Counted from the first letter of the stretch, positions 23,044 through 43,408 are shown. The stretch is DNA of 51,076 nucleotides from Candidatus Yanofskybacteria bacterium (GCA_003514055.1 DOSG01000008.1:208087-259162); one strand, 5' to 3'. Notes: a model not told the origin generated them from the letters alone. Translations and numbers: made by a program.

Positions 23044-24207
23044 TTAAATTAGAGATTTTATATTATCGGCATAATTTTTGATGGCCACGGTCTTATCAAA
23101 TCTCGATAAGTCGGTTTCAACTTTGATATCTTTCGCTTCTTTGAAGGCTTTTATAGCTTGGTCTGATGACCAGTCGATAATCCGCCCGTTATTAGAATTC
23201 AAAACGTCCGGGACTATCCCTACTAGCGTAGCTATGACCGGAATACCGCAAGCTAGGGCTTCTAAGATAACTCTGGGGCCGCCTTCATTGTAGGATAACA
23301 TTATTAGCGCGCGAGATTCATTTATAAGTTTGGCAACCTCGGCGGAATCTTTGGCCCAACCATAAAGAATGACACGGTCATTCAATTTTGAATTTTGAAT
23401 TTCTAATTTTAAATAATTATGAAGGGCGCCGTTGCCGACGATTAAGATCTTGAGATTGGATTTTTTGGCTATCTCTAGTAATATGTCTAATCCCTTGTTT
23501 TTCTCTAGGCGTCCAACAAAAATTAGATCGTACTTTTTCTCTAAATTCATGAGCTTAAAAATGTCTAAGTCAATATAAAAAGCTGGAATATATTTGATCT
23601 TACTCTCCGATACTCCTGCCTTTTTCAAGAAACCGGGCACTTCGTTTTTATTGATTACTCTAATCGCTTTAGCCTTGGAAGAATCGATAGATATAAAAAT
23701 TCTGGTCAAAAATTTATAAAAGAATTCTCTAAGATCAGAAGTCCTAGGGTAACCAGGTATGTGCATTATTTCAAGAACATATGGAACTTTGATCTTATTC
23801 CAGAGCATTCTTGCTCCGAGGCCATTATAGAATGGCGGATACTCGTGGACGGTCATGACCCAATTTTGATTTTCTAATTCCCAATGGCGGTCTTTGCCGC
23901 CTAAAAGACCGCCATTAGCGCTTAAAATTTTTAGACCTTCAAAATAAATCCAGAATGGCTGGAGGATTTTGGGCCAGGGTGAGGGATGAATGAAAACGTT
24001 GCCGAAGAATTTATTCTCATAACGAAGGGCGCCTTTTCCGGCAGCTGCCGGAGCCAAAAGACCGCGATCATTCCGGACTCTTGGGCAGATGATGTCGATA
24101 CGATCCCAGTGTTTATGGAATTCCTCAAGAGTATTATAAAAAGCGCCGCGCTTCCCTTCGGCCAATGCAGACGCACCAACACCGGAAATCATTAGTAAGC
24201 GAGCCAA
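23044..24207 (-). CDS. GT4 glycosyltransferase containing two in-frame palindromic insertions
   Basis: FVGRLEKNKG, EGGPRVILEALACGIPV; foreign-looking segments DRGLLAPAAAGKGALR and NGGLLGGKDRH. Confidence 0.88.
   Translation of the reverse strand: MARLLMISGVGASALAEGKRGAFYNTLEEFHKHWDRIDIICPRVRNDRGLLAPAAAGKGALRYENKFFGNVFIHPSPWPKILQPFWIYFEGLKILSANGGLLGGKDRHWELENQNWVMTVHEYPPFYNGLGARMLWNKIKVPYVLEIMHIPGYPRTSDLREFFYKFLTRIFISIDSSKAKAIRVINKNEVPGFLKKAGVSESKIKYIPAFYIDLDIFKLMNLEKKYDLIFVGRLEKNKGLDILLEIAKKSNLKILIVGNGALHNYLKLEIQNSKLNDRVILYGWAKDSAEVAKLINESRALIMLSYNEGGPRVILEALACGIPVIATLVGIVPDVLNSNNGRIIDWSSDQAIKAFKEAKDIKVETDLSRFDKTVAIKNYADNIKSLI
23883..23916. repeat. Palindromic element copy A (in CDS)
   Basis: AATGGCGGTCTTT-GCCGCCTA-AAAGACCGCCATT; 34 bp (23886-23919) identical to intergenic 43378-43411. 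Confidence 0.9.
24022..24065. repeat. Palindromic element copy F (in CDS; hybrid arms, nested inner palindrome)
   Basis: ACGAAGGGCGCCTTT + TCCGGCAGCTGCCGGA (perfect 16-bp palindrome, 24037-24052) + GCCAAAAGACCGC. Confidence 0.8.
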
Positions 24208-24208
24208 T

Positions 24209-25408
24209 CTATTTTAAATTAGTAAATTTATTAGGCAGTAAAACTTCTTCTATCAAAGTGACAGTTTCTCCATACATCCTTTCTAGGCTGAATTCTGCAA
24301 CGGTCTTTTTACCCTCTTCGATAAATTTCTCCTTAAGCTCGGGCATATTGTGTAGAGTCTTGATGGCTTCAATCAAATTAAATTCATCATTATACCTGAC
24401 CATAAAACCATTCTCGCCCTGGTTGATTATCTCTTTGTTGCCACCAACGGCAGTGGTAATCACCGGAACTCCGGCTGCCATAACCTCCAATATCTGATGG
24501 GAGAAACCTTCGTAGCCGGTATTGAGCACAAAAACATCAGAAGCGGCGAGATATAGAGCTAGCTCATCCTTGGTCTTGGCACCAACCACAAAAACTTTTC
24601 GATCCAGGCCCATGTTCTTAACCATACTTTCGAGAACTTTTTTCTCGGGACCATCGCCAATAATAACCAACCTGAAGAATTGTCCAACTTCGAAAAGTTT
24701 GGGCATAATCTTGATCAACATTTTAAAACCCTTCCACGGAACCAGTCTTCCGATAGAAACGATCACGTTGCCAGCTATTCCTATTTTCTTCCGAGCTTCT
24801 TCTCTGGCGATATCCAATGGCTTAAAATCGGTTCCGTTATATACGACTCTTATCTTTTCGCCATATACGCCCCAGCCCTTAACGACACCGGAAAGATATT
24901 CGGACGGCACGATTACGGCATTCGCGTTCTCGCATATTTTTTTCTGAATCTTATGAAGCAGTCCAATCTTGCCGCGTTTTGGTTCTTTCTGGAAATCGTT
25001 CACCATCAAATAAGTCTTTCCGGTGTTGATCGCCTTCTCCCAGGCACTGTCACCCACGATTTTGACGATAAATTTCTTCTTATAAGATTTGGCCGCCTTA
25101 AAGGCCCAGTAACCAGCGCTTATGGAATTGAGCGCTAGGACTAGATCGGCCTTCTTAGCCAATCTTCTGGCCTTAAGATAATACGACAGATATTTGATAA
25201 CTTTGGGGGGCCTTCTCCAAACACGAACTATCTTAAATGGCAGACTATCATCTTCTTTGACTTTCCATTTATTGGTATATGTTAAAACGATCACTTGGTG
25301 ACCATTCTCAGTGAGCTTCTTTCCCAAGGTTTTCGCATATGAAGCTGGCCCACCGATGTCGGGAGGGAAAATGCCAGTACAGATTAGGATTTTTGATTTT
25401 TCAGTCAA
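24209..25408 (-). CDS. GT4 glycosyltransferase
   Basis: GIFPPDIGGPASY, SIGRLVPWKG, YEGFSHQILEVMAAGVPV. Confidence 0.93.
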   Translation of the reverse strand: MTEKSKILICTGIFPPDIGGPASYAKTLGKKLTENGHQVIVLTYTNKWKVKEDDSLPFKIVRVWRRPPKVIKYLSYYLKARRLAKKADLVLALNSISAGYWAFKAAKSYKKKFIVKIVGDSAWEKAINTGKTYLMVNDFQKEPKRGKIGLLHKIQKKICENANAVIVPSEYLSGVVKGWGVYGEKIRVVYNGTDFKPLDIAREEARKKIGIAGNVIVSIGRLVPWKGFKMLIKIMPKLFEVGQFFRLVIIGDGPEKKVLESMVKNMGLDRKVFVVGAKTKDELALYLAASDVFVLNTGYEGFSHQILEVMAAGVPVITTAVGGNKEIINQGENGFMVRYNDEFNLIEAIKTLHNMPELKEKFIEEGKKTVAEFSLERMYGETVTLIEEVLLPNKFTNLK

Positions 25409-25429
25409 AAGAGTAATTTTGAATTTATT

Positions 25430-26137
25430 CTACTTCTGGACAAATAGATTATACCTGATTATGTGCCAAATGGCGGCAAGGCCGTCTTTCCATGTAATCT
25501 TCTTACCGTCGCCGTAGGTCCTGCCATGATAAGAAATGCCAACCTCGTAAATTCTAAGCTTATGTTTGGATATCTGCGCGGTTATCTCCGGCTCTATACC
25601 GAACCTTTCGGCGGTCAAACACGGTAATATCTCCTTTATAGCCTTCCCAGTGAAGACTTTATACCCAGTTTCCATATCTGACAAATTCAGATTAGTGAGT
25701 ATGTTCGAAAGATATGTTAAGTATTTATTTGCCGCATAGTGCCAGAAATACAGTATCCTGCGAGGATGTACAGTGACAAATCGAGACCCATAGACTACGT
25801 CAGCGTGGCCATCTACGATAGGCTGGATAATAGTTGCATATTGATTCGGATCATATTCGAGATCTGCATCTTGAATTATAACGATGTCGCCAGTTGCCCC
25901 TTTAAATCCTTCTCGAATGGCGGCGCCCTTGCCTCGATTCTCAGCCATGAAAATAACTTGGTGTCTAGATTGATATTTTCTTAGAATCTCCCGCGTTCTA
26001 TCTTTCGAACCGTCATCAACTAAAATTACCTCTTTCGAATATGGTAAATCGACCTTCTCCACGGTAGAGATAACCTTCTCTATGGTCTTTTCTTCGTTAT
26101 ATATCGGAATTACAATACTAATCTTTTTTATAAACAT
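25430..26137 (-). CDS. GT2 glycosyltransferase, polyprenol-phosphate mannosyltransferase (DPM1)-like
   Basis: SIVIPIYNE, VDDGSKD, NRGKGAA, IIQDADLEYDP, SDMETGYK, GIEPEIT. Confidence 0.92.
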   Translation of the reverse strand: MFIKKISIVIPIYNEEKTIEKVISTVEKVDLPYSKEVILVDDGSKDRTREILRKYQSRHQVIFMAENRGKGAAIREGFKGATGDIVIIQDADLEYDPNQYATIIQPIVDGHADVVYGSRFVTVHPRRILYFWHYAANKYLTYLSNILTNLNLSDMETGYKVFTGKAIKEILPCLTAERFGIEPEITAQISKHKLRIYEVGISYHGRTYGDGKKITWKDGLAAIWHIIRYNLFVQK

Positions 26138-26149
26138 AAAAGGTAAATA

Positions 26150-26242
26150 CTAAGCACTAAATTCTAAATCCTAACAATTAAGATCTCAGAACTTTTTTTA
26201 CAGATTCATAAATACTAAATTCTAAGCCCTAGATCCTAAACA
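26150..26242. repeat. Two arrays of degenerate 7-bp tandem repeats (CTAAATY-like)
   Basis: CTAAGCA CTAAATT CTAAATC CTAACAA (26150-26177) and CTAAATT CTAAGCC CTAGATC CTAAACA (26215-26242), each preceded by TAAATA. Confidence 0.75.
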
Positions 26243-26273
26243 AATTATGAACCATAAGAATAAACTCTAAATA

Positions 26274-27491
26274 TTAATTTGGAATGAAGTTATAGATTTC
26301 TTGGAACTTTTCAGAAATTGATTGCCAGCTATATTTATTTTTAGCCAATTCTCTGCCGTTCTCAATCAGCCTTCTCCTTAAATCAACGTCAGACAGAACC
26401 ATTTTTATCTTCTTTGCCAAGTCTTCGTGATCGCCGACCCCACAAAAAAGACCAGTGACTCCATCTTCCAGAAAATCTACGATTCCACCGACACGAGTAC
26501 CGATTATTGGCACACCCACAGCCATAGCCTCCAAAAATGCATTACCTAGCCCTTCCGAATAAGATGGCCTGGCAAATACATCGGCCATACTTAAATAACC
26601 CGGTAGATCTTCGTAGTAGATATCCCCGGCGAAGATGATTCTATCAGACACGCCCAACTCTACGGTTAGACTCTCTAGCTCGTCAGCCATTGGCCCAGAT
26701 CCGATGATCACCAACCGAGTCTTTAAATTTCCGATAACCTCATCTAGCCGAGCAAAGGCCTTTATTAAAACATCGACGCCGTTCTTAGGTACCAATCGCG
26801 ATACAGTCATGACTATTCTTTCATCTTCGCGAATATTTAATCTCGACTTCATCTCTGACCCCTCAAAATCTAGTTTCTTGAATAAGTCCGAGTCGACTCC
26901 GTTGGGTATCACGATTATAGTTGCTTTCTTATTTAATTTTCGAGCAAATTCGGCCAGATAGTTGCTAATGGCCGTTATCTTATCGGACTTTTTGATGACT
27001 AGGCCTCTCATCATCTTAAGAAGCGCGCCTTGGCTATCCAACTCTTTCCCTTCTTGAAGTGTTGTGATTAACGAAACGTTGGGATCGAAGATCTTAACCA
27101 GGTAAGCGGCGATCGCGCCGTAGGAAGCTTGATATGCGTGGAGACGGCTATAGACACCGTAGCAATGGCGGTCTTTTCCGGCAGTTGCCGGAGCGAAAAG
27201 ACCGCCATTGCCGGCGAGGCTGCGGGCTTTGAAAAAGCCGAGTATCGGGAGGAGATATTTATCGAATTTAAATCCCAGCCCCAGCCTATGGACTTTAATA
27301 TTGCCTACTTGTTCGGTCTTCTTGTTGGCTCTCGAGAAACGGGCTGTAATTAAATCAAAGCTAATCTCAGGAAGCCTTCGGCAGATTTCTTCCATGGCTA
27401 TTTCTGAGCCTCCGATCATTGGCCTAAAAGCCGTGGAAAATAGTAAAATTCTCTTTGATTCTGGTTCCATTTTATGATACCATCGTCTCAT
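26274..27491 (-). CDS. GT4 glycosyltransferase with one in-frame palindromic insertion
   Basis: IGGSEIA, IPNGVD, TVSRLVPKNG, EGLGNAFLEAMAVGVP; insertion NGGLFAPATAGKDRH. Start may be ATG 27470 (MEPES). Confidence 0.92.
   Translation of the reverse strand: MRRWYHKMEPESKRILLFSTAFRPMIGGSEIAMEEICRRLPEISFDLITARFSRANKKTEQVGNIKVHRLGLGFKFDKYLLPILGFFKARSLAGNGGLFAPATAGKDRHCYGVYSRLHAYQASYGAIAAYLVKIFDPNVSLITTLQEGKELDSQGALLKMMRGLVIKKSDKITAISNYLAEFARKLNKKATIIVIPNGVDSDLFKKLDFEGSEMKSRLNIREDERIVMTVSRLVPKNGVDVLIKAFARLDEVIGNLKTRLVIIGSGPMADELESLTVELGVSDRIIFAGDIYYEDLPGYLSMADVFARPSYSEGLGNAFLEAMAVGVPIIGTRVGGIVDFLEDGVTGLFCGVGDHEDLAKKIKMVLSDVDLRRRLIENGRELAKNKYSWQSISEKFQEIYNFIPN
27162..27211. repeat. Palindromic element copy E (in CDS; nested inner palindrome)
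   Basis: GCAATGGCGGTCTTTT ... AAAAGACCGCCATTGC (16-bp arms) around TCCGGCAGTTGCCGGA. Confidence 0.9.
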
Positions 27492-27528
27492 AAATAAGGG
27501 CTTAGTTCAACCTAATTAGCTAGATAAA

Positions 27529-28683
27529 ATGAGGATTCTATTCATTATCACTCAATCAGAGTTTGGCGGCGCCCAGCGCTTTATTTTTAATTTAGTAAAT
27601 AAGCTAAGAGTTGGCCCAAAATACGAGATTACCGTGGCCACGGGAAGCGATGGCGGCGGCAACCTGCTAAAATCAGTTCAGAATATTGGCCTACCGATTC
27701 ACGAGATTAAGCATTTAAAACGAAATATAAGCATCGGACACGATATACTTGCGATATTTGAGATTAGAAATTTAATTCATGAGACTAAGCCTGATGTTCT
27801 ATTCTTAAATAGTTCCAAGGCTGGCTTTATCGGCGCCCTAGCGGCAAAGTTTCCAATGCGTATCAAAAACTTAAAGATTGTCTATCGCATTGGCGGATGG
27901 ACATTTAATGATCCCTGGCCAAATTGGAAGAAAAAGATGTGGGCTATCCTAGAGAGAATTAGCGCCCGCTGGAAAGATTATATAATCGTCAACTGCAAAT
28001 CTGACTACGATCAAGCTCACAAACTAAAGATTCGCCCCAGGAACAAGCTAGTCTTGGTTCATAATGGCATCGATCCGTACAAAATCAATTTACTCACCAA
28101 AGAAGAGGCTAGGCTAAAATTATTTGAGAAAATCTCTAGACAATGGGGCAAGGTGTTCCAGGTTAAAAGAATCGTCGGCACCATAGCCAATCTCTACCCG
28201 GTCAAAGCTCTTGAATATTTCGTAGAGACCGCTGATTATTTCAAGAAAGACGAAGATACTATTTTTGTAATTATCGGCGAGGGTCAAGAATATGAGAGAC
28301 TCCAAAGTCTGATTAAGACCAAAGGCCTAGAGAAAAGCGTGTTCATAATTAGTCAGCCGACTGAAGCTAGTCAGCTTCTATCCGCCTTTGATGTATTCGT
28401 CCTCGTATCTATTAAGGAAGGCTTCTCCTGGAGCCTTCTAGAGGCTATGACCGCTAAATTACCAGTGATATCCACCGACGTTGGTGCCGCCAAAGAGATG
28501 ATTGAGGATGGTAAGAACGGATTTGTAGTGGAAGCCAGAAAACCAGAACAAATAGCGGCCAGGATAAAGGAGATATTTGATAACAGTCGCCTACAGCAAG
28601 AACTTGGCATCCAAGCCCACCAGACCGTCCTATTCAAATTCAGCCTAGATAAGATGGTCAGCCAGATAGAGAGCTTGCTATAG
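27529..28683 (+). CDS. GT4 glycosyltransferase
   Basis: SEFGGAQR, LNSSKAGFIG, VHNGID, ANLYPVK, KEGFSWSLLEAMTAKLPV. Confidence 0.93.
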   Translation: MRILFIITQSEFGGAQRFIFNLVNKLRVGPKYEITVATGSDGGGNLLKSVQNIGLPIHEIKHLKRNISIGHDILAIFEIRNLIHETKPDVLFLNSSKAGFIGALAAKFPMRIKNLKIVYRIGGWTFNDPWPNWKKKMWAILERISARWKDYIIVNCKSDYDQAHKLKIRPRNKLVLVHNGIDPYKINLLTKEEARLKLFEKISRQWGKVFQVKRIVGTIANLYPVKALEYFVETADYFKKDEDTIFVIIGEGQEYERLQSLIKTKGLEKSVFIISQPTEASQLLSAFDVFVLVSIKEGFSWSLLEAMTAKLPVISTDVGAAKEMIEDGKNGFVVEARKPEQIAARIKEIFDNSRLQQELGIQAHQTVLFKFSLDKMVSQIESLL

Positions 28684-28694
28684 TTTCTCTATCT

Positions 28695-28729
28695 GGAAAT
28701 TCTAATTATTAAAATCTAAATCCTAAATA
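28695..28729. repeat. Degenerate 7-bp tandem repeat array
   Basis: GGAAATT CTAATTA TTAAAAT CTAAATC CTAAATA in the intergenic gap. Confidence 0.5.
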
Positions 28730-28740
28730 GTCTAAGGTTT

Positions 28741-30246: not shown

Positions 30247-30289
30247 AAAGACGGTACTGATTCTCTCAATACCGTCATGTCTCGTTATC

Positions 30290-31660: not shown

Positions 31661-31711
31661 CCTGTGTCTCCTGTCCTGATTGGAAAGTTACTAGAATTAA
31701 CCGATGGGCAT

Positions 31712-31739
31712 ATTATACAACTAATTCATTAAAAATCAA
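31712..31739 (-). promoter_or_regulatory. Sigma70-type promoter of the TPM gene
   Basis: TTGATT (31739-31734), 16 nt, TATAAT (31717-31712). Confidence 0.55.
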
Positions 31740-31774
31740 GGTTCGCTATGTTGGCTTCAAGAAACCACGCACCC

Positions 31775-31883
31775 TTCGATCATAGAGACATTGCTCCCTT
31801 GGGCCAAAACATTCTTAAACTACATTGTTACTGATAAGAAATGAGCCATGATATATGTCGATGATGACTCGGTTATATTCTTA
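31775..31883 (+). pseudogene. Degenerate second copy of the 3' end of 28741..30246
   Basis: FDHRDIAP[+1 nt]WAKTFLNYIVTDKK*AMIYVDDDSVIFL versus FAHTDITPWAQTFLNYIITDKKWAMVYIDNNSVIFL (30091-30198); 85 of 108 nt identical by hand. Confidence 0.85.
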
Positions 31884-32426
31884 TTTCCCGATGGCGGCCT
31901 TCGAAACCAAGAAGGCCGCCATCATAATAAGCACCGACAGAGCGATCAGAAACCTGCCAAGACCGAGTGCGAATATGCTACCAATAATTGTAGCCGATTC
32001 TCTTTCGGGCTCGTAACTAATTAAATTATCAGGCGACCCGACGTCGGCTGAAGGCATCGACAATATCTTGCTGTCATAATGGCTTCTGCCAGAGACACTA
32101 ACGAGATTGCCATTAAGCGATTCCGGAACTGGAGAGCTAGTCAAACTTGGAGTTGGCGTGGGGCTAGAAATAAAAAAATTACCTACCGAACCAAGTTTCT
32201 CTGAATAGATCTTCGCCTTCGGAGTAGGACTGATCAAGCCAGAGACAGCGCCAACTGGACCAATTTGGTTAATCGAGCTAGTCGCCTCTTCGACAACGCC
32301 GCTAAGCGTATGGCCCAAATCGCTAGATAGTCTACCGGTAATCTCAGATGCCTCTGCAGACGAGAAAAACCAAAGACCTGCAACCAGTAAAATCGGGCTT
32401 AGTAGCCTATATGCTTTGAAAGCCAT
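31881..32426 (-). CDS. Hypothetical surface protein with signal peptide, Ser/Pro/Thr linker and C-terminal TM anchor
   Basis: The track ORF starts at 32480, inside the upstream gene; ATG 32426 (MAFKAYRLLSPILL...AEA) is the plausible start. Its last codons are a palindromic element. Confidence 0.7.
   Translation of the reverse strand: MAFKAYRLLSPILLVAGLWFFSSAEASEITGRLSSDLGHTLSGVVEEATSSINQIGPVGAVSGLISPTPKAKIYSEKLGSVGNFFISSPTPTPSLTSSPVPESLNGNLVSVSGRSHYDSKILSMPSADVGSPDNLISYEPERESATIIGSIFALGLGRFLIALSVLIMMAAFLVSKAAIGK
31890..31923. repeat. Palindromic element copy H (diverged, compensatory changes)
   Basis: GATGGCGGCCTTC-GAAACCAA-GAAGGCCGCCATC, preceded by TTCCC as in copies A and C. Confidence 0.8.
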
Positions 32427-33531
32427 AATTTGTGTAGTATGGCCCACCGATAGAGCCAGGCGGTATCCTAACCTCGACAACGACTTGCACTTGTCGACCA
32501 GCAGTCACGGCATCTAAATCGCTACTAAGCTTCATTGGATTTGAATAAGTGCCAGAATTGTTTACGATAATCGACCTATTGGGAACATCAGCATTAGATG
32601 ATTGGACCGAATATATCCTCACATTATTAGCAGTAGCTATTATATTAGATCCGCTAGACCAATCATCAAATTTCAAAGACAGATCCTCTTGATTCATCGG
32701 AACCGTGATATCGAAAGCCCATTTCCAGCCATGATCGAAGTTCCCATCGGCTATCGCCGAACTCCTGAGTATAGTTATATTAGTTACCGATATATCACTG
32801 ACATCGCCTGGCTCGCTCGTTGACGTGGGAGATGGACTTGGCGATGAGACCGGAGAAGGTGTTGCCGTAGGCGATGAACTTGGTTCAGGCGTTGGAGAAT
32901 ACGATGAGCTTGGAGTCGGCGATGAAGATGGAGTAGACTCTAAGCCGTCGAACCCAACTGACAAAGATATGAGATCATGGCTTGTATGGGTCTCAGCTGA
33001 AGGATTTCTGAAAGCAAGAAACCTTATCTTTAAATTATTAATCTTGGAAACACTATTTACGATATCCGTCAGATCAAAGTTATCGATGACATCATTATTC
33101 AGGGCCCCTTCCGTTGTTAGTAATAATTGATGAGAGAAATCTACGCCATCCCAGATTTCTAGCTTAGCTCCAGCCAGAGCCCCAGACCTTCTATACTTAT
33201 GGGATATAGATACGGAATTTATAGTTGAGTCTCCCGCAATGTTGGGAGAAAAGATAAATTCTAGATATTTACTTTCGTCGTAGGTGCCATCGTTGGGCCA
33301 AGGTTCGTTACTCTGGATACGAGTATTATCGTTAGCGCTTAATTTAGATATATCGATAGCACTAAAACTAGCCGAAACGTCGGAGCTATCATCAAAACCG
33401 TTGCTGATTGTATAGTTCTGATTAGTACTCGCACTAATATCAGACGATGTAGTAAGCCAGCCAAAACCCCATATAGAGACGCTCACTATAAGAATCGCGG
33501 CAGAAAAAGATTTTTTCAGCTCATCGTTCAT
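32407..33531 (-). CDS. Hypothetical secreted/surface protein; two beta-rich domains joined by a Ser/Pro/Thr linker
   Basis: N-terminal hydrophobic segment, STPSSSPTPSSSYSPTPEPSSSPT linker. Confidence 0.75.
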   Translation of the reverse strand: MNDELKKSFSAAILIVSVSIWGFGWLTTSSDISASTNQNYTISNGFDDSSDVSASFSAIDISKLSANDNTRIQSNEPWPNDGTYDESKYLEFIFSPNIAGDSTINSVSISHKYRRSGALAGAKLEIWDGVDFSHQLLLTTEGALNNDVIDNFDLTDIVNSVSKINNLKIRFLAFRNPSAETHTSHDLISLSVGFDGLESTPSSSPTPSSSYSPTPEPSSSPTATPSPVSSPSPSPTSTSEPGDVSDISVTNITILRSSAIADGNFDHGWKWAFDITVPMNQEDLSLKFDDWSSGSNIIATANNVRIYSVQSSNADVPNRSIIVNNSGTYSNPMKLSSDLDAVTAGRQVQVVVEVRIPPGSIGGPYYTNYGFQSI

Positions 33532-33563
33532 GCGATACCAATGTTTCTTACATTATAACTCCA

Positions 33564-35534
33564 CTACTTGAGCCCATCAAGAAGCTTAGCAAAAGCCTGA
33601 GCAAGCTCGGCGTCTAGTCCAGGCAAAGACATCCCATCTTTTATATTTTTCAACGCTTCGTCACGATCATCCATCGCTCTATACGTCACGGCCAAGTTAT
33701 AATAAGTTGTCGGATCCGATGGCTTTATTCTCTTAACCTCTTCTAGCATTTTTATAGCTTCCTCGGGCTGATTGTTTTTCGCATATATTGAGGCTAAATT
33801 CTGGTAGGCAAACGGGAAGTTATTATCCTTCTCGATAGCAAGCCTATAATATTCCGTCGCTTTCTCGGTATCCCCTCTGTCTCGATAGATGTTTCCGAGA
33901 TTGTAGTATGGCTGAGGATATATATTATTTTTGTCAGCGATAATCTGCTCATATATTCTGGCCGCATCGTCTAGGCGACCCTTATCTGAGTATATATTAC
34001 CTAGATTATTCAATATTCTGATGCTTCCGGGATTATATCTAATTATCTCTTCATAAAACGCTATGGGATTACCCCAGATTAGGTTTCTCCTTATCGATTG
34101 GACGGCGAAAAATAACAGATAACCAATGACAACCAGCCAAAATAGCCAAGTCATCACCGCACAAAGGCGCCCTTTGTATCCGCCAGGGGCGGATAGGCGC
34201 CGACCGCCTTCGCAAGATTGTAAGATGCCCCACAGCTTGTCCAAGTAGAAGGCCAATAACGCGAAGAATCCGATCAATGGCAGGTATAGCCAATGCTCAT
34301 AGATGATGGCATTAATCGGAATTATGCCTGAAACCATACTTAAAGACACAAAGAACCAGGACCAACCGAAGAACCAAATCCTAAAGTTAGAAATTTCCCA
34401 ATGGCGGTCTTTGAAGCCTAAAAGACCGCCATTGCCAGCCGAGGCGATCTCCGACCCCCGAGCTTGGAACTTTCGCATTTCTTTTCTGCTTATATGCCGG
34501 TCTTTGCCTGCCTGCGCAGACGGGCCGCCTAAAAGACCGCCGTCTAAATATTTAGGGCTTAGTGCTTCCTTTCTGTATAAAATGACCCCGATAGCCACGA
34601 TCGCCATTATTGCTAGAAATCCGAGCCAGACTGGCCATTGGAAAAATGAAGTATGTACCGAAAAATCCCTTTCCATGTGCAAACCCGTAGGAACAAATAT
34701 AAGCCTTATATACTCGAGAAATACATGGAAGAAAGTATATATTCTATAAATTAGATTATCGGCATAAACATTCGAAGCATTGTAGAAGTTGAGGGTATTC
34801 TGAAAATTGAGGACGGTAAGTCTCAGGATTCCATAGACTCCGGAAATTGCGAAAAATGGAATCGCCTTAACGATCCCCTGCCACAAAGACTTAAAGAACT
34901 TGTCTCGAGAAAGGAAGGATACGTAGAAGACTACCAGAAGTACTGGCAGTAATATGGCCGTCTCTCGGCTTAGAACGGCTAGAATCATAGATGCGAGACC
35001 TAACGTCCGATACAAGACCTTTTTGGAGCTATCCACATTGATTCTAATGAAAGCCGCAAGAGCCAGAAGCATAAAGAAGACGGACATTGGATCTCCACGG
35101 CCAGATATGTATGACACGGCTTCAACTTGGAGTGGACTCAGCAGAAAAAGCATAGACGCAAAGAAAGAGATAGTCTTCTTCCGAAATACGTACAGAAGGA
35201 TCAGGAATGCAAGTATGGCATTAAAAACGTGGAAGGCATTACTGAGTAAATGATATCCGAAAGGATCGGTGCCAGAGATCGCATAGTTAAAGGCGAAAGT
35301 TAAGAGAAGAAAGGGACGATAATAGTTACTATTTAGGCCGAAACCAGACAATACGTCTTTAGTAAATATTTCCTTGAGATGAGAGAAATCATGAACATAA
35401 TTATTGCCCACTATCCAGTCATCATCGTCCCAGAATAGCCCGTTGTTAAGATTAAAGGCATAGACCCCCGCGCCCAACAACACGATGAGGGCAATCAGCC
35501 CAATATTCTTTTTTATTGTATCAGTAAAAGACAT
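33564..35534 (-). CDS. TMTC-like membrane protein (GT-C-like N-terminus, C-terminal TPRs); candidate protein O-glycosyltransferase, with three palindromic insertions
   Basis: FWDDDDWIVGN, YYRPF, PFGYHLLS, EAVSYISGRGD, SRETAI, YEHWLYLP; TPRs (NNLGNIY, YYNLGNIY, AYQNLASIY). Confidence 0.82.
   Translation of the reverse strand: MSFTDTIKKNIGLIALIVLLGAGVYAFNLNNGLFWDDDDWIVGNNYVHDFSHLKEIFTKDVLSGFGLNSNYYRPFLLLTFAFNYAISGTDPFGYHLLSNAFHVFNAILAFLILLYVFRKKTISFFASMLFLLSPLQVEAVSYISGRGDPMSVFFMLLALAAFIRINVDSSKKVLYRTLGLASMILAVLSRETAILLPVLLVVFYVSFLSRDKFFKSLWQGIVKAIPFFAISGVYGILRLTVLNFQNTLNFYNASNVYADNLIYRIYTFFHVFLEYIRLIFVPTGLHMERDFSVHTSFFQWPVWLGFLAIMAIVAIGVILYRKEALSPKYLDGGLLGGPSAQAGKDRHISRKEMRKFQARGSEIASAGNGGLLGFKDRHWEISNFRIWFFGWSWFFVSLSMVSGIIPINAIIYEHWLYLPLIGFFALLAFYLDKLWGILQSCEGGRRLSAPGGYKGRLCAVMTWLFWLVVIGYLLFFAVQSIRRNLIWGNPIAFYEEIIRYNPGSIRILNNLGNIYSDKGRLDDAARIYEQIIADKNNIYPQPYYNLGNIYRDRGDTEKATEYYRLAIEKDNNFPFAYQNLASIYAKNNQPEEAIKMLEEVKRIKPSDPTTYYNLAVTYRAMDDRDEALKNIKDGMSLPGLDAELAQAFAKLLDGLK
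34161..34208. repeat. Compound palindromic element copy G (in CDS)
   Basis: ACAAAGG-CGC-CCTTTGT, then TATCCGCC-AGG-GGCGGATA, then GGCGCCGACCGCC; encodes GGRRLSAPGGYKGRLC. Confidence 0.7.
34400..34433. repeat. Palindromic element copy C (in CDS)
   Basis: AATGGCGGTCTTT-GAAGCCTA-AAAGACCGCCATT; encodes NGGLLGFKDRH. Confidence 0.9.
34494..34543. repeat. Palindromic element copy D (in CDS; nested near-palindrome)
   Basis: ATGCCGGTCTTTG + CCTGCCTGCGCAGACGGG + CCGCCTAAAAGACCGCCGT; encodes DGGLLGGPSAQAGKDRH. Confidence 0.85.
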
Positions 35535-35571
35535 GAAGTAATTATGCCAAGAATGAAGGAGATATTGTACG

Positions 35572-36324: not shown

Positions 36325-36341
36325 GGTAACAGTTTAAACAA

Positions 36342-37397: not shown

Positions 37398-37429
37398 AGT
37401 ACAATAATATCATAATCTAGTTTCCGTGT

Positions 37430-37461
37430 AACCAAAAACCGCCCGAAGGCGGTCTTTGGTT
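37430..37461 (-). terminator. Intrinsic terminator of the S-layer-like gene
   Basis: Minus strand AACCAAAGACCGCC-TTCG-GGCGGTTTTTGGTT: cUUCGg loop, one G-U pair, U-rich 3' side. Confidence 0.85.
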
Positions 37462-37483
37462 TTACTTATCTAATACCGAGGTG

Positions 37484-40400: not shown

Positions 40401-40885
40401 TTCTGGTACCAGTTGAATTCATTCTGGTTGATGACGAAAACCTTTTTAAAGAAGTTCGGGTCATCGGCAACGGCCTGAGCTCCGGTTGTGTTCACCCAGT
40501 GTAAAACTGCAGTGTCCTCACCAGTTGACTGAAGACCGTAGACCTTCTGATCACCATCGAGTCTGAACAATCCCGATGTCGGGAAAGCATCTCTGGCGAC
40601 AGCTGATACGTTCTTAACGTTGGCGAAACCGCCAAGGTGACCGTAGAAGCTGAAAATGACTGGGTTCAAGAATAATCTCTTGTAGCCCTGTTCATTTACG
40701 ATATAGATGTCCGGATCTGACGAACCAGCAGCACTAATAGTGTTGCCTTCTGTTAGACCGTAGTCTGACGGCATCGCGGCATTCGCTACTGGAGCGAGTA
40801 CTGCGAAACCTGATAACGACAATATAGTCGTTATGGCGGTAAGAGTTGCGACAACTCTCAAAGCCCTTTTCGATAAATTACTCAT
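37484..40885 (-). CDS. Large secreted S-layer-like/cell-surface protein with tandem Ig-like beta domains
   Basis: 1133 aa, signal peptide ending APVANA, Ser/Thr/Gly/Ala/Val-rich, no Cys, repeated beta-sandwich-like segments, own strong terminator. Confidence 0.8.
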   Translation of the reverse strand: MSNLSKRALRVVATLTAITTILSLSGFAVLAPVANAAMPSDYGLTEGNTISAAGSSDPDIYIVNEQGYKRLFLNPVIFSFYGHLGGFANVKNVSAVARDAFPTSGLFRLDGDQKVYGLQSTGEDTAVLHWVNTTGAQAVADDPNFFKKVFVINQNEFNWYQKGSDYTSVNQIPVYTRGGSVQPGTNLSVGLASDNPAAGTLVKGQAAADLAHFTFTGSGTVTSLKLNRIGVSADTDLTNVYLYDGAKRLTDAASVASGVISFNDSVGIFTVSGSKTISVRADLDATSTGNTVGVQLVQFNGMNASVSGNLFTPANATLGTVSLATSNGVSTNTSLSPASDINVWQNTVTVNTRAANLMSVQFRVIGSINSGDVQNFRLYVDGVQKGSAVSLPDSNGYVLFDLTGAPVRLETGGRVVKVMADVINGSGRNFYLSVRQAPDFFTVDTQYGQPILTQVNSTTFTASSAGTQTIAAGVLTFTKATDSATGDVVKGASGVSLAKFEVKATGEKMKVESMKYSFTSSNGGSTAASNVGQLRNGAIFLDGVQIGSTKSLNEDSWSTVFTEYTFGSSFIVTPGTPKMLEVRADVYDADGTDNTAANDTIVANIVATTGTVQRMTSLDYTDITAKTGNSVTVKTGSFSAGKYSGYANQSVVAPKNNFKMGHFTLAAASSEDLSVNTINLDSDNSGSTMKASNLSDTYLKVYNDAGTLVYTSPVKTTLSDTASNSYSVNFTMPKNKTYQVEVWSNLTSTVAAGYMNFEMDAVGITTGSSTTSTATGVNGQTVTYAAGSLTKANGSIAGSRLAKGGDTVNAYSFTLQPAYDDYTLDEVYVDLSSTAASSSGAIANLLLKDGNGVLLSSATVNPTTGSASFVGVNKVLAQTDGKQTFTVSVQLADVGISRNDTGGLVIVRLDGLKYRNSSGTITTANGYATATYTGNSIISHTAYPVFANQALSSSSLATGAKDIFQTKVTSSGSQAVYLDRLVFTIAKSVNVQIGGGSSALSADYRLFEDGVDISSLTSIASASADLDLVAVGTGQVAFTFTNERPIDSIGHVYRLQVDVTAVPVAPASIVTSIANPSSSAITDDAVVVRSTLSSTSPSVVWSDSSAVTHSTSTDDWMNDYLIQTIGTSQSLSI

Positions 40886-41051
40886 TTTATTTTTACTTTT
40901 ACTTTTGTACTGGGCTGTATTATCTATCGCGTTAAGCGAGGATAAATCGACCAGCGACAGAACAAAAGATTTTTATTATCAATTAATTACTCTTCATCCA
41001 TGTAATCTTTCTGTAATTTCTTTAACGACACCTTTACTAAAATAATCTCTT

Positions 41052-41162
41052 TCGAAACTACCCAAGATGTCGACGAGTTCTGCTAAGCCTACTTATACGC
41101 TTTCGCGTGGTGAGATTCATCATGTTTCGACCTAACAAATCTCGGCTAAGTGGCCTATCGAC
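41052..41162 (-). ncRNA. Candidate structured cis-regulatory RNA (multistem with pseudoknot) upstream of the S-layer-like gene
   Basis: Nested stems GTCGAT/GTCGAC, CTTAGCC/GGCTTAG, GAGATTTGTT/GATGAATCTC, an ACGC-GAAA-GCGT hairpin, and loop TCGAAAC complementary to downstream GTTTCGA; no family assignable by eye. Confidence 0.45.
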
Positions 41163-41299
41163 TGCAAAACCCTATATTACTCAATATATTAACTTTCTAT
41201 ACTTGATCTAATTTTCAACGATCATTCCTGATCTGCCCACCTCTACAAATCTATTTGACTTGCAAGGGTGGACGTACCAGCCTTCACATAAACAATAAA

Positions 41300-41318
41300 G
41301 CAGCCAAAACCTGGCTAC
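41300..41318 (-). terminator. Terminator-like hairpin in the upstream region
   Basis: GTAGCCA-GGTTT-TGGCTGC followed by TTTATTGTTT on the minus strand. Confidence 0.45.
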
Positions 41319-41432
41319 CGTGCGTTGTTTTCTGCAAATTTATTGCTCATATTTATAATTGTTTTTGGTTCTATTTTGACCACTTGTTGGCTTAAACCCT
41401 TATTATTATGACTAGTCTACGTGGTCTGTTTA

Positions 41433-41461
41433 ATACTAGCGCAAACTACCTAAAAAGTCAA
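41433..41461 (-). promoter_or_regulatory. Sigma70-type promoter about 550 nt upstream of the S-layer-like gene
   Basis: TTGACT (41461-41456), 17 nt, TAGTAT (41438-41433). Confidence 0.6.
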
Positions 41462-41502
41462 TTGGTTTTCTAATTAATTTTAAGGCAGCTTTTTGGCTCT
41501 TA

Positions 41503-41522
41503 TTGCTCATATTTATGAGCAA
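41503..41522. promoter_or_regulatory. Candidate operator palindrome
   Basis: TTGCTCATA-TT-TATGAGCAA; the 17-mer TTATTGCTCATATTTAT occurs at 41500-41516 and again at 41340-41356. Confidence 0.5.
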
Positions 41523-41617
41523 ACGTACACAACTTCTACTAATGAATAAATTATACTTTTTAAGTTTGGCGGCCACAATAGGCAAATTGTGGATAAACAA
41601 AGGATTTAGGCCGACAA

Positions 41618-42604
41618 TTAAAAACCGGCAGCGCTATTCCTCTGGCCAGGCGTTCCATTAATCGCATTGCCCTTAGAATCAAGGCCATTCTTAATCAATC
41701 CATTGTTCGACCTCCAATTCGATCTATCATTACTAGAAGCTGACGGATCCACTCTTTCCATAGAACTCTTGGTCTCGTTATCTCCGGCAAACCAACCAGA
41801 CGAACAGTTCACCTCGTCTATGATTTGGCCAGCACTATTTACTAACTGGACGGCCTCGCCGCTGTTATTAAGGCCAGCCTTACTGAAGCTAACAGCCAGA
41901 TCAGCCCAAACGTCAGAGATCGTATTGTTGTCGGTCCTTTCTATTAAATAATAACCTCGCGCAGGGATACTCTTTGATAAGCTCAACGTGAAGCCGCCAT
42001 CTGCTGTTTTTAGTGACAATCCCGAAAGACTGACTGCAATTTCGTTTGGGTTGTACAATTCGATCCACTCATCGTTAGTCGCGGCAGAGGTCCCCATCCA
42101 GGCAATTTCATTTATAACGACCGCGCGCGGTGAGGTAGTTAATTCTGGCGCTGGCGTAGCAGATGAAGTAGCAATAGGTGTCGGTGTTGAACTTGGTGTC
42201 AAATTTGGTGTCGGTGAAACTGGAGCTGACGATGGACTTGGCAACGACGCAGATGTTGGCCTTGCAGATGGTGACTGCAATACGACGGGAGCGGGAGTAA
42301 TCACAGGAGACACACCAGCAGTAATAGCCTGAGGACTAGGTGACATTATTGGTGACAAGCTGGGCTTTGGTGACATTATTGGTGACAACTTCGGTGACAC
42401 GAGCTTGTCACCTATCTTGTCACCAATAATATTAGCGGCTAAAGGAGTGTCCGCGCCGCTTAGTGAGTCGACGGAAAAGTAATCGCCGTTATCCGAGTTA
42501 AAATACGTAACTGTTTTTTGAGATAGCAAAAAGACGCCTAAAAGCGCCGCGGCAGAGATGAAGAAAAATAGGAAACGTAGTTTAGACGAATTTTCGTCTT
42601 CCAT
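41618..42604 (-). CDS. Membrane-anchored lamin-tail-domain (LTD) protein
   Basis: VVINEIAWMGT, NDEWIELYN, LNNSGEAVQL, GTPGQRNS motifs; N-terminal TM and Ser/Pro/Thr stalk. Confidence 0.88.
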   Translation of the reverse strand: MEDENSSKLRFLFFFISAAALLGVFLLSQKTVTYFNSDNGDYFSVDSLSGADTPLAANIIGDKIGDKLVSPKLSPIMSPKPSLSPIMSPSPQAITAGVSPVITPAPVVLQSPSARPTSASLPSPSSAPVSPTPNLTPSSTPTPIATSSATPAPELTTSPRAVVINEIAWMGTSAATNDEWIELYNPNEIAVSLSGLSLKTADGGFTLSLSKSIPARGYYLIERTDNNTISDVWADLAVSFSKAGLNNSGEAVQLVNSAGQIIDEVNCSSGWFAGDNETKSSMERVDPSASSNDRSNWRSNNGLIKNGLDSKGNAINGTPGQRNSAAGF

Positions 42605-42638
42605 GTTTTATTCAGTATAGCAGAATAGTGTCGTTCAT

Positions 42639-42686
42639 TAAATACGAAGGGCGCCTTTGAGGCCAAAAAGGCGCCCTTCGTATTTA
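42639..42686 (-). terminator. 20-bp-stem hairpin downstream of the wHTH gene (palindromic element family)
   Basis: TAAATACGAAGGGCGCCTTT-GAGGCCAA-AAAGGCGCCCTTCGTATTTA; a lone right arm AAAGACCGCCATT follows at 42699-42711. Confidence 0.7.
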
Positions 42687-42718
42687 TTTCGCTGACTGAA
42701 AGACCGCCATTGATATTA

Positions 42719-43306
42719 TTAGCTGACTTCGACGGAATAGCGCACCGCCTTATTATCTTCCTTCCTTTGGATAAAACCCTGATCGGTGAGTTCCTTCAGG
42801 CTCCTCTTCACGGTTCTCTCGGATATAAGATTGAATTCTTCGATTACTTGCTTGGTCCTAACGCTTGGGACCTGCTTGATGAATTCGAGTATTCTTTCTT
42901 TCGTAGGAGAAAGATCTTGGTTTGCCTGTCGTTGAATGAGATTCTTTTTCTGCGGTAATTTCTGAGCTGGGACTTTCTTGATCAACTTATCGCCATCACC
43001 TTGCACCTCACTAGCAGATTTAAGAATGTCTAGCTTGAGTCTTAGAAAATTTTTCTTAGCCAAAAGTAGGGGACCAGGAGATACGGTTTTGAGATGCTCT
43101 AGGTAATCAAGAGTTTCTAACATCTTATCAATCGGATTGATTATTCTTTTTACTTGCGACTCCCCTTCGGTTTTTTTATAAACTACGATGAGCTCCGAAA
43201 GATTCAAATACATTTTACGCACAAAGAAAGGATCTTTAGTCCCCGCCATTAACTTTGCCGTAGATACAAGGCATCCAATAAATTTGTTGACTCTATCCTC
43301 TGCCAT
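42719..43306 (-). CDS. Putative transcriptional regulator: helical N-terminal domain plus C-terminal winged HTH (DeoR/ArsR-like)
   Basis: LSPTKERILEFIK...VRTKQVIEEF.LISERTVKRSLKELTDQGFIQRK. Confidence 0.8.
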   Translation of the reverse strand: MAEDRVNKFIGCLVSTAKLMAGTKDPFFVRKMYLNLSELIVVYKKTEGESQVKRIINPIDKMLETLDYLEHLKTVSPGPLLLAKKNFLRLKLDILKSASEVQGDGDKLIKKVPAQKLPQKKNLIQRQANQDLSPTKERILEFIKQVPSVRTKQVIEEFNLISERTVKRSLKELTDQGFIQRKEDNKAVRYSVEVS

Positions 43307-43318
43307 TTGATTGATTAC

Positions 43319-43347
43319 ATTAAAGTAGTTATGAGAAGTTTAGTCAA
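43319..43347 (-). promoter_or_regulatory. Sigma70-type promoter of the wHTH gene
   Basis: TTGACT (43347-43342), 17 nt, TTTAAT (43324-43319); ATG at 43306. Confidence 0.6.
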
Positions 43348-43374
43348 TACGGATGATGGCTACAAGAGGAACAC

Positions 43375-43408
43375 AACGGCGGTCTTTGCCGCCTAAAAGA
43401 CCGCCATT
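43375..43408. repeat. Palindromic element copy B (intergenic)
   Basis: AACGGCGGTCTTT-GCCGCCTA-AAAGACCGCCATT; the single arm change is a G-U pair on the minus strand. Confidence 0.9.

Follow-up and report, generated by a model that had tools for sequence, protein, structure and literature searches.

A dispersed family of short palindromes, probably REP/RPE-like, between genes and in frame within genes of Candidatus Yanofskybacteria

How does one short hairpin come to lie both between genes and, in frame, inside genes of unrelated function? The question is raised by a stretch of 51,076 nucleotides (the window) from the MAG of a small uncultured groundwater bacterium, Candidatus Yanofskybacteria (CPR/Patescibacteria), in which a hairpin repeat of about 34 bases, termed F1, is present between genes as well as in frame inside enzyme genes.

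Definition and copies of the F1 family

The exact F1 pattern ATGGCGGYCTT-N-AAGRCCGCCAT gave four matches with none expected, and the pattern ATGGCGGNCTT-N5..30-AAGNCCGCCAT matched exactly at 23884, 27165, 31891 and 34401 and not once in 100 shuffles. The hairpin family that a sequence-only reading of this DNA had listed is therefore real, but several of its sites had to be reassigned. When up to one mismatch was allowed in the 11-mer F1 arm, 17 matches were obtained in the 51-kb window against 2.7 expected, adding 34494/34533, 43376/43397, 24058 and a lone arm at 42700. Diverged and half copies included, seven to eight F1 sites are spread over 20 kb of the 51-kb window, and the same 51 kb holds two to three sites of a sister family, F2 (AAAGGGCGCCTTT), some members of which lie 3' of genes. 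The following copies were distinguished:

23883..23916, minus strand: F1, 13-bp stem and 8-nt loop, in frame in GT4 enzyme 1 (ORF 23044..24207), N98-H108 NGGLLGGKDRH
24022..24068, minus strand: F1/F2 hybrid hairpin, in frame in GT4 enzyme 1, about D47-R62 DRGLLAPAAAGKGALR
27162..27211, minus strand: F1, 17-bp outer stem, in frame in GT4 enzyme 2 (ORF 26274..27491), encoding NGGLFAPATAGKDRH
31890..31923, minus strand: F1 variant, 13-bp stem and 8-nt loop, compensated arms GGCGGCCTTC / GAAGGCCGCC, at the end of ORF 31881..32480
34161..34205, minus strand: F2 remnant (ACAAAGGGCGCCTTTGT) with a small nested hairpin, ATCCGCC-CCT-GGCGGAT, in frame in the TMTC-like protein, about ...GGYKGRLC
34400..34433, minus strand: F1, 13-14-bp stem and 8-nt loop TAGGCTTC, in frame in the TMTC-like protein (ORF 33564..35534), N368-H378 NGGLLGFKDRH
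34494..34543, minus strand: F1, diverged arms and 26-nt loop, in frame in the TMTC-like protein, D331-H347 DGGLLGGPSAQAGKDRH
42639..42686, minus strand: F2, 20-bp stem and loop TTGGCCTC, intergenic, 3' of ORF 42719..43306
42699..42711, minus strand: lone F1 arm (AATGGCGGTCTTT, minus strand), 8 nt 3' of the stop codon of ORF 42719..43306
43375..43408, minus strand: F1, 13-bp stem and 8-nt loop, intergenic, between ORFs 43524..44543 and 42719..43306
46759..46800, no strand assigned: F2-like hairpin AGCATACAAAGGGCGCCCC / GGGGCGCCCTTTGTATGCT, intergenic, 3' of the FKBP gene 46857..47420

The proposed form, a hairpin of about 34 bp with an N8 loop, holds for the copies at 23883, 31890, 34400 and 43375, but the loops of two others are longer: that of 27162 (about 16-20 nt) is itself a hairpin (TCCGGCAgtTGCCGGA), and that of 34494 consists of the usual 8 nt (TAGGCGGC) and an 18-nt palindrome, CCGTCTGCGCAGGCAGGC. 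At 24022, previously taken for an F1 copy, only one arm is F1-like (ATCGCGGTCTTTT); the other is F2 (AAAAGGCGCCCTTCGT), a CCGGCAGCTGCCGG palindrome is nested between them, and the hybrid folds weakly (z = -0.6). The site at 34161 is an F2 remnant and not, as assumed, a diverged F1, while 42699 is indeed a half copy. The F2 hairpin at 42639 has its apex as in F1 and scores 43.6 bits against the F1 model. The hairpins at 23883 and 43375, at unrelated sites 19.5 kb apart, are identical in 33 of 34 positions, or in 36 of 37 with the shared AGC flank; the reported 34/34 identity exists as an exact 34-nt run, shifted by 3 nt relative to where the hairpin begins. Of about 13 independent copies, 5 have AATT(T)CCC directly 5' of the stem; on the + strand, AATTCCC precedes the stem at 23883, ATTTCCC at 31890 and AATTTCCC at 34400.

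Seven of the 11 F1/F2 sites in the window, whose coding share is 92.5%, are intragenic, and the other four are intergenic and all 3' of genes. As had been noticed, all seven lie within unbroken minus-strand ORFs (23044..24207, 26274..27491, 31881..32480 and 33564..35534). The minus (coding) strand of F1 reads AAT GGC GGT CTT TTA GGC NNC AAA GAC CGC CAT, which encodes NGGLLG(G/F)KDRH; four of the six reading frames through F1 are open, and the favoured one yields a flexible peptide. Six (N/D)GGL...KDRH peptides in the same frame had been counted, of which four are clear and two diverged (DRGLLAPAAAGKGALR; GGRRLSAPGGYKGRL), and the copy at 31890 is read in a different frame, in which ORF 31881..32480 takes from it both its final 13 codons (MAAFLVSKAAIGK) and its stop context. 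Judging from the intact frames, the peptides are probably translated. A strand bias of F1 relative to replication could not be told apart from gene orientation.

Insert peptides and the corresponding sites in relatives

Copies were also found in at least eight related contigs, and a search of the GTDB species genomes (n=185,579) with the exact pattern returned no family members. The two GT4 enzymes and the TMTC-like protein were aligned with their orthologues (50-73% identity), as had been proposed, and in all three alignments the insert positions were empty and the peptides missing; relative to its GT4 orthologues, the 23883 copy amounts to a 15-residue insertion. In P0242, P0251 and P0260 the orthologous GT4 carries the same element elsewhere, and related genomes also have it, on other CPR contigs, in an unrelated 534-aa ORF and in intergenic DNA adjoining housekeeping genes. 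Among the relatives compared, no presence/absence pair was close enough to fix the exact insertion boundaries. The peptide was carried by 9 of 360 homologues, all among the closest relatives. Because the orthologous sites are empty, the element lies elsewhere in the same GT4 and in unrelated genes, and peptide carriers are few, the sequence comparison identifies the F1 copies as lineage-specific inserted DNA, in line with the earlier idea of a spreading element that adds peptide to proteins.

That NGGL..KDRH is an ancient functional peptide motif, or that the copies are assembly artefacts, is hardly credible and is already refuted by these comparisons; nothing beyond the recurrence of the peptide speaks for it. 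The peptide is confined to a handful of the closest relatives and occupies different positions in orthologues, its DNA has a near-identical copy (36/37) between genes, and its synonymous sites are conserved. Two further public assemblies of this organism, making three, contain the copies, as do independent JGI and SRA samples; the copies are therefore no artefact of this assembly.

The insert positions had been thought to look like loops, which agrees with the structural predictions. In AlphaFold models, pLDDT was below 50 at residues 102-110 (23883 insert) and 54-63 (24022 insert) of GT4 enzyme 1 and at residues 96-110 (27162 insert) of GT4 enzyme 2, and, bar the N-terminus of GT4 enzyme 2, such segments coincided with insert peptides only, suggesting that these are the only disordered internal loops of the enzymes. 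The TMTC inserts fall in an inter-helix loop of variable length. Intragenic copies are found only where the frame is free of stops, and mostly as a Gly-rich NGGL-x-KDRH peptide in a disordered surface or inter-helix loop.

Conservation of the hairpins and possible routes of spread

Stem pairing amounts to 98%, four of 13 pairs are changed on both sides, and hairpin stability gave z from -6 to -11.5. Copies are near-identical while flanking codons differ by 30-35%; between L066 and L063 the element is identical in 43 of 46 positions, the flanking codons in 25-38 of 46, and synonymous sites within copies are conserved. Arm variants are common to the copies of one genome (GGGAGTC/GACTCCC in intergenic and TMTC-loop copies of L081), the same 44-46-nt palindrome occurs in two unrelated genes of another (L063:3720, L063:9412), and a 240-nt tract around two copies is 100% identical between strains that are otherwise 88% identical. 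The palindrome is kept through compensatory changes and its copies resemble one another much more closely than does the coding DNA around them; the unit copied is the DNA hairpin, which lands inside genes and downstream of genes.

Such conservation at the nucleotide level could reflect host function instead of selfish spread. F1 copies would then be nucleic-acid structures under selection, recruited repeatedly (e.g. as mRNA 3'-end stabilisers, transcription/translation pause sites or binding sites of CPR proteins), with selfish transposition secondary or absent. Conservation far above that of flanking codons, synonymous sites included, and the compensatory base-pair changes are consistent with this, as are the position of intergenic copies just 3' of genes and the persistence of perfect 19-20-bp F2 palindromes at one TMTC site in lineages whose proteins share only 59% identity. 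However, unrelated proteins carry the intragenic copies in disordered loops, at positions that are empty in orthologues, clear decay was observed at L079 site 2, in the L081 TMTC loop and at 24022 and 34161 of the window, and F1 has no Rfam match, so that host function appears unlikely as the main explanation. An intrinsic terminator is a GC-rich stem followed by a U-tract; in a loose scan only the intergenic copy at 43375 passed, and the intragenic copies have neither T-tract nor U-tail.

F1, F2 and a further sister, F3, with arms in an inside-out arrangement, form a superfamily of GC-rich, near-perfect palindromes of 34-50 bp, whose loops may hold a second, nested palindrome. Hairpin loops and occupied sites are hot spots for further palindromes. 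The GT4 site at 24022 holds an F2 hairpin in L079, a frame-3 F1 in L066 and the hybrid in the window, and at the 34161 site L068 and L080 carry perfect 19-20-bp F2 palindromes that are flipped relative to each other. At the 27162 site, an 85%-identical relative (P0122/L078) has a short-loop form, from which the window copy differs by its nested loop palindrome. The TMTC loop corresponding to 34494 contains a decayed copy with lineage-specific arms in L081, and the same half-site was found both head-to-head and tail-to-tail.

Hot spots, nesting, flips and concerted evolution would also follow if no dedicated transposase were involved and palindromes were formed and renewed on the spot, hairpin-prone sites being cut (e.g. 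by SbcCD-type nucleases), with repair through template switching or ectopic gene conversion. The re-occupation of sites by different hairpins, the nesting in loops, the flip between L068 and L080, the inside-out arms of F3 and the failure to find a transposase or target duplication all fit this reading. It leaves unexplained, however, how a 36/37-identical copy first reached an unrelated site 19.5 kb away and why L063:3720 and L063:9412 share a palindrome, and we consider it decidedly unlikely.

A dependence of CPR bacteria on DNA uptake is generally assumed. DNA uptake sequences are defined as short motifs with a strong excess of single copies, also in genes, where they arise by substitution. 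F1 arms might accordingly be uptake-signal-like motifs of a naturally competent CPR cell, enriched through biased uptake and recombination and commonly arranged in pairs, as inverted repeats; the 240-nt identical tract looks like recent recombination, and the two orientations of the half-site would fit as well as the presumed reliance on uptake. But solitary arms are near-absent, with one exact in 51 kb and three other 1-mismatch singles at chance level (2.7 expected), and whole hairpins were inserted instead of motifs arising by point substitution, which makes this explanation very improbable.

Taken together, F1, F2 and F3 probably constitute a REP/RPE-like dispersed palindrome superfamily of a narrow Candidatus Yanofskybacteria clade, the mobility of which we infer from the comparative patterns. 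Spread would be driven in trans by an enzyme encoded outside the window, most likely a HUH (Y1) transposase, of the RAYT or IS200/IS605 type, that recognises single-strand hairpins and might use AATT(T)CCC 5' of the stem as a tag. Gene conversion among copies may homogenise them, and selection would purge insertions in other frames or in structured protein parts. As previously noted, no transposase or RAYT was detected in the 51-kb window by Pfam, and tblastn with E. coli RayT, a weak test, gave no match in 235 kb of related sequence. In an alignment of 12 copies, the flanks contained no GTAG/CGTC tag and, in the search for target duplication that had been suggested, consisted of inverted extensions or unrelated sequence without direct repeats; GTAG lies 1 nt from the stem of the 27162 copy, which is outside the 12. 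These negative results, and the fact that AATT(T)CCC is not universal, speak against a mobile repeat.

A more far-reaching version, which we judge quite unlikely, is that a hairpin-specific CPR enzyme system favours the single-stranded loops of hairpins already present as insertion sites for palindromes and keeps copies identical by conversion, the palindromes being actively maintained structures with their own propagation logic in reading frames. If so, 'Russian-doll' nesting, flips and inside-out junctions would result, proteins would gain a renewable disordered loop at fixed hot spots, and a mode of loop-targeted transposition or homing undescribed for REPs would be at work.

Relation to known systems

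MITEs have terminal inverted repeats, a target-site duplication and an internal, non-palindromic IS-derived core. F1 was rejected as a MITE, the 12 copies lacking flanking direct repeats, the core being an 8-nt loop and no parent IS being seen. IS200/IS605 elements and their hairpin derivatives (REP/RAYT, PATE) transpose as single strands, with recognition of the hairpin and no target duplication. F1 resembles these derivatives in its hairpin unit, the missing target duplication and the short conserved oligonucleotide that some copies have 5' of the stem, but no TnpA or RAYT gene was seen and the tag is not universal.

Coding palindromes are also known from organelle genomes, namely Nematomorpha mitochondria (PMC6649704) and the palindromic repeats of Volvox organelles (PMC2670323). 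F1 shares with them inverted repeats in coding sequence, which in the organelle cases are perfect and have both arms translated, but some of these are far longer (up to 284 bp; PMC6649704; PMC2670323) and organelle-borne, with no evidence of common sequence or mechanism.

RPEs, as summarised in two later papers, are palindromes inserted in frame in unrelated genes and in non-coding DNA of a reduced genome, with peptides tolerated at the protein surface and a size of about 100-150 bp for the classical RPE-1 to RPE-3 (Ogata et al. 2000, via PMC10969869, PMC3733652). F1 likewise lies in frame in ORFs of unrelated function and in non-coding DNA of a reduced-genome host, at loop positions compatible with the fold (AlphaFold; TMTC loop alignment). 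At 34-50 bp it is shorter than classical RPEs and nearer to RPE-4 and RPE-6; it belongs to another phylum and probably to an unrelated sequence family, and its unit size and Yanofskybacteria host set it apart from RPE-1..10.

Intragenic REPs are GC-rich dispersed palindromes of 20-40 bp tagged by GTAG or CGTC (Di Nocera et al. 2013, PMC3733652). Their variants are species-specific and occur as singletons, dimers and clusters, mostly 3' of ORFs, although some lie wholly inside ORFs and their short peptides are thought to sit in loops or linkers; the short palindromes RPE-4 and RPE-6 in Rickettsia ORFs were equated with short CGTC REPs (PMC3733652). F1 agrees with REP-type elements (20-40 bp, GC-rich, imperfect, at many unrelated sites) in size and dispersal, with a stem of 13-19 bp and a unit of 34-50 bp, and in its location 3' of genes and inside ORFs. 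Unlike REPs, it lacks a GTAG/CGTC tag and has AATT(T)CCC 5' of the stem in some copies, no RAYT has so far turned up in the 51-kb window or, by tblastn, in 235 kb of related sequence, its CPR host has a reduced genome, most window copies are intragenic instead of extragenic, and palindromes are nested in loops. No report of F1-type palindromes in CPR bacteria was found in the literature. The precedent of REPs and RPEs named in the sequence-only reading holds, but novelty was overstated there, since 20-40 bp REPs in ORFs, RPE-4 and RPE-6 included, were known and intragenic REPs are an established phenomenon (PMC3733652; PMC10969869). F1 is a new sequence family of a known kind of repeat, because intragenic 20-40 bp REPs have already been described in other phyla (PMC3733652).

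Palindrome families in a glycan-biosynthesis locus

The window (41% G+C) holds a locus for glycan biosynthesis and the cell envelope, and nearly all its genes lie on the minus strand. According to Pfam, the products include numerous glycosyltransferases (GT4 and GT2), methyltransferases, sugar epimerases and flippases, together with an O-antigen-ligase-like protein, a membrane protein with TPRs and large surface proteins. Along the window the cumulative GC skew decreases monotonically, in agreement with the minus strand as leading strand. The 'Candidatus Yanofskybacteria' MAGs GCA_003509745.1 and GCA_001001065.1 encode proteins 100% identical to those of the window and match it at 99.97-100%, with NN gaps as the sole differences. 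In DOMZ01000032 and LCIK01000012, from the same organism, NN gaps or missing stretches were located at window 34776-34872, 23224-23378, 20428-20527 and 19323-19382, and these split or shorten gene calls: the gene for the TMTC-like protein (ORF 33564..35534) appears as pieces of 227 aa and 370 aa, and P0241 is shortened to 330 aa. P0241 was rejected as an independent orthologue because it stems from the same organism in a gapped assembly.

The palindrome family described by the sequence-only reading proved to be real. Exact matches of ATGGCGGNCTT-N5..30-AAGNCCGCCAT were found at 23884, 27165, 31891 and 34401, and none in shuffled sequences. When one mismatch was allowed, the 11-mer arm yielded 17 matches against 2.7 expected, adding 34494/34533, 43376/43397 and 24058 as well as a lone arm at 42700. 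A covariance model built from 12 copies detected no additional copy in the window. On the minus strand the unit of this family (F1) reads AAT GGC GGT CTT TTA GGC NNC AAA GAC CGC CAT, encoding NGGLLG(G/F)KDRH. The F1 hairpins and those of two sister arrangements (F2 and F3) are as follows.

Palindromes of the window and of related contigs
F1, 23883, 34400, 43375 and 31890: stem of 13-14 bp, loop of 8 nt
F1, 27162 and 34494: long loops, each with a second palindrome inside
F2, 42639-42686 and 46759-46800: intergenic hairpins, each close 3' of a gene
F3, L062:5278-5307 and 6886-6915, L081:20525-20564: F1 half-sites joined right arm to left arm, ACAAAGGCTGCCATTG-CG-CAATGGCAGCCTTTGT

One of the two long F1 loops carries the nested palindrome TCCGGCAnnTGCCGGA, and the other adds CCGTCTGCGCAGGCAGGC after the usual 8 nt. 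Folded as single-stranded DNA, the short form reaches -13.5 kcal/mol (z = -6.2) and forms with extended stems down to -20 kcal/mol (z = -11.5). F2 is a second palindrome, ACAAAGGGCGCCTTTG..CAAAGGCGCCCTTTGT, which has the apex CTTT-TTGGCCTC-AAAG in common with F1 and is scored at 43.6 bits by the F1 model. F3, seen in related contigs, consists of F1 arms turned inside out (AAAGRCWGCCATTG-CG-CAATGGCWGYCTTT); at the homologous intergenic spot, contig L068 carries a complete F1 hairpin followed by a degenerate additional left arm. Two positions previously listed as family copies, 34161 and 24022, turned out not to be plain F1. The former is half of an F2 plus a small nested hairpin, and at the same codons contigs L068 and L080 have perfect F2 palindromes of 19-20 bp, flipped between the two with a compensated base pair. 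The latter has arms of both kinds, one F1-like and one F2, and a nested CCGGCAGCTGCCGG. In another contig (L060:95-128 and 169-211), the region downstream of rplU contains an F1 and an F2 hairpin of opposite orientation, separated by about 45 nt, a pair that resembles a REP doublet.

Perfect GC-rich hairpins of 11-19 bp outside any repeat family lie directly 3' of genes at 1758-1795, 28662-28696 and 43474-43508, and are probably ordinary terminators of the organism, mostly lacking long T-tracts. For F1 itself, a terminator reading and an origin as an assembly artefact were both considered and discounted. Neither Rfam nor a tRNA scan gave a match in the window.

Intragenic copies and their encoded peptides

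Judged by alignment with orthologues, the intragenic F1 copies are insertions. In GT4 enzyme 1 (ORF 23044..24207), ANGGLLGGKDRHWEL has no counterpart in any of the independent orthologues aligned (57-71% identity), all of which show a clean gap of 15 residues there. In GT4 enzyme 2 (ORF 26274..27491) the F1 peptide is missing from all orthologues at ≤56% identity, and P0122, which is 85% identical, has it with the short loop (NNGGLLGGKDRH). In the TMTC-like protein, about 55 residues across both F1 copies lie between hydrophobic segments, in a loop that the other orthologues have in short and variable form. Only 9 of 360 homologues returned possess the F1 peptide, all of them closest relatives; an ancient peptide motif was considered and likewise discounted. 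Three homologues (P0242, P0251, P0260) carry (N/D)YNGGL(L/F)G(F/L)KDRHCN elsewhere in GT4 enzyme 1, at a position that is empty in the window and holds a decayed peptide in P0243.

Because orthologues of each GT4 paralogue without the insert exist, the two insertions are independent events; in both enzymes the insert comes after the same long helix in the N-terminal Rossmann domain. AlphaFold models of the two enzymes were confident overall (pLDDT 84-85, pTM 0.80-0.81). Values below 50 were obtained only for residues 54-63 and 102-110 of GT4 enzyme 1 and for residues 96-110 and the N-terminus of GT4 enzyme 2, and these low-confidence segments coincide with the hairpin-encoded peptides.

The F1 consensus contains a stop in two of six frames, and TAGGCTTC-type loops also contain one in the reverse orientation of the favoured frame. 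The NGGL..KDRH frame is used at six independent intragenic sites, other frames once each (MAAF.. at a C-terminus, 31890; WLSF..RQP, L066:985). Such a bias is compatible with selection in favour of a flexible, Gly-rich peptide, and the mechanism of insertion may contribute to it. All window copies whose orientation can be resolved, including the intergenic copy at 43375 and the F2 at 42641, share one orientation, which is mostly confounded with gene orientation.

A scan of JGI metagenomes revealed more F1 members in CPR-like contigs, two of them in the same frame within large ORFs (a 534-aa ORF and a GT4 orthologue) and several intergenic, adjoining housekeeping genes. Among 185,579 GTDB species genomes the exact pattern gave 59 matches, all single terminator-like hairpins in unrelated taxa and no family member, and IMG/VR viral contigs gave no F1 match; the family is therefore narrow.

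Two other repeats were noted within genes. GGTGACA-rich inverted repeats at 42339-42430 (arms of 23-27 nt, 81-88% complementarity) encode IIGDKIGDKLVSPKLSPIMSP in a lamin-tail-domain protein (ORF 41618..42604) and have no sequence relation to F1. An AT-rich repeat of 20-28 nt, (TCG)AAATTAGAAATTCAAAATTC(AAA), encoding (S)KLEIQNS(K/N), recurs without a change in three genomes, each time in an unrelated gene: GT4 enzyme 1 (window 23387-23409), GT4 enzyme 2 (L078:634-660) and TsaE (L065:2082-2109). A diverged copy at 23862-23879 abuts an F1 hairpin.

The hairpin as a conserved unit at re-used sites

In a set of 12 distinct copies, pairing holds in 98% of stem cells and 4 of 13 pairs changed on both sides, values that no shuffle reached, with the caveat that the copies are related to one another. 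A rival reading takes the hairpins as a structure that functions for the host. Between L066 and L063 the element is identical at 43 of 46 positions, compared with 25-38 of 46 in 46-nt flanking windows of the same gene. Around both F1 copies of the TMTC-like gene, window 34258-34560 and L068:5600-5840 share about 240 nt that are 100% identical apart from one indel, against ~88% identity in the rest of the gene; this tract could reflect recent recombination or constraint at the nucleotide level. Close upstream of an F1 copy, a 1-nt deletion (L068:5725-5732; GGCTGGCAATGG to GGCTGCAATGG) frameshifts the gene, which is therefore called as the 371-aa fragment P0007; the deletion may be genuine, making the gene a pseudogene, or an error of sequencing at the hairpin.

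The L081 genome has an arm variant of its own, GGGAGTC/GACTCCC, shared by an intergenic copy and a half-decayed TMTC-loop copy, which indicates concerted evolution or repeated re-insertion. A single site in GT4 enzyme 1 holds F2 in L079, F1 in frame 3 in L066 and the hybrid in the window. Identity between the window and L078 is ~94% in the vicinity of the GT4 enzyme 2 site; at the site itself they differ by a 12-nt longer loop forming a nested hairpin, diverged immediate flanks and a 75-nt extra insertion, which adjoins the F1 copy and holds the AT-rich repeat. As hairpins at the same sites vary between lineages, the occupied sites are hot spots, and a second rival holds that the palindromes arise locally at such hot spots without a transposase.

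Mobility and relation to known repeats

Neither target-site duplications nor flanking direct repeats were found in 12 aligned copies. One F1 subfamily extends the palindrome to GATTAC..GTAATC, a 19-bp stem. On the strand with GNNGCCWA in the loop, AATT(T)CCC directly precedes the stem in five independent copies, one of them F2, and is absent from some others; it recalls the 5' tag of REPs (repetitive extragenic palindromes) and the 5' cleavage or target oligonucleotide of IS200/IS605. Pfam identified no transposase across essentially all window ORFs, and tblastn with E. coli RayT, a weak test, gave no match in the window and 235 kb of related DNA. That the TMTC-like gene holds a larger composite element was rejected, as the 60-nt spacer between its two F1 copies occurs only at the orthologous site, and the reading of the arms as a DNA uptake signal was discounted.

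The most likely explanation is a palindrome like REPs or RPEs (Rickettsia palindromic elements), which would move in trans as a single-stranded hairpin; conversion would homogenise the copies and selection on frame and protein position would filter insertions. The earlier interpretation, a miniature non-autonomous element that spreads and adds peptide sequence, was judged essentially right. CPR/Patescibacteria have very small genomes thought to be poor in mobile elements, and a REP-like superfamily in this genome would mean that even such genomes are shaped by DNA of a selfish or semi-selfish kind. It adds loops of 11-17 residues to cell-envelope glycosylation enzymes and stays near-identical while host genes diverge. 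The repeats account for length differences and split gene calls in the annotation of these MAGs, mark recombination or indel hot spots and are usable for strain typing; hairpin and AATT(T)CCC tag offer a concrete substrate for finding the responsible enzyme.

The phenomenon has precedents: REPs of 20-40 bp inside genes are documented in several bacteria and the short Rickettsia elements RPE-4 and RPE-6 have been equated with CGTC REPs (PMC3733652). In-frame fusions of MITE and RPE have been reviewed (PMC10969869), and coding palindromes occur in organelles too (PMC6649704, PMC2670323). No description of such palindromic or REP-like elements was found in the literature on CPR, Patescibacteria and Parcubacteria. 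F1 and F2 differ from the two REP superfamilies in their tag and from classical RPEs in size and taxon, and are most suitably classed as a new family within an already known sort of repeat. What is new is the host phylum, together with the nested loops, the re-used sites and a nucleotide conservation exceeding that of the host gene.
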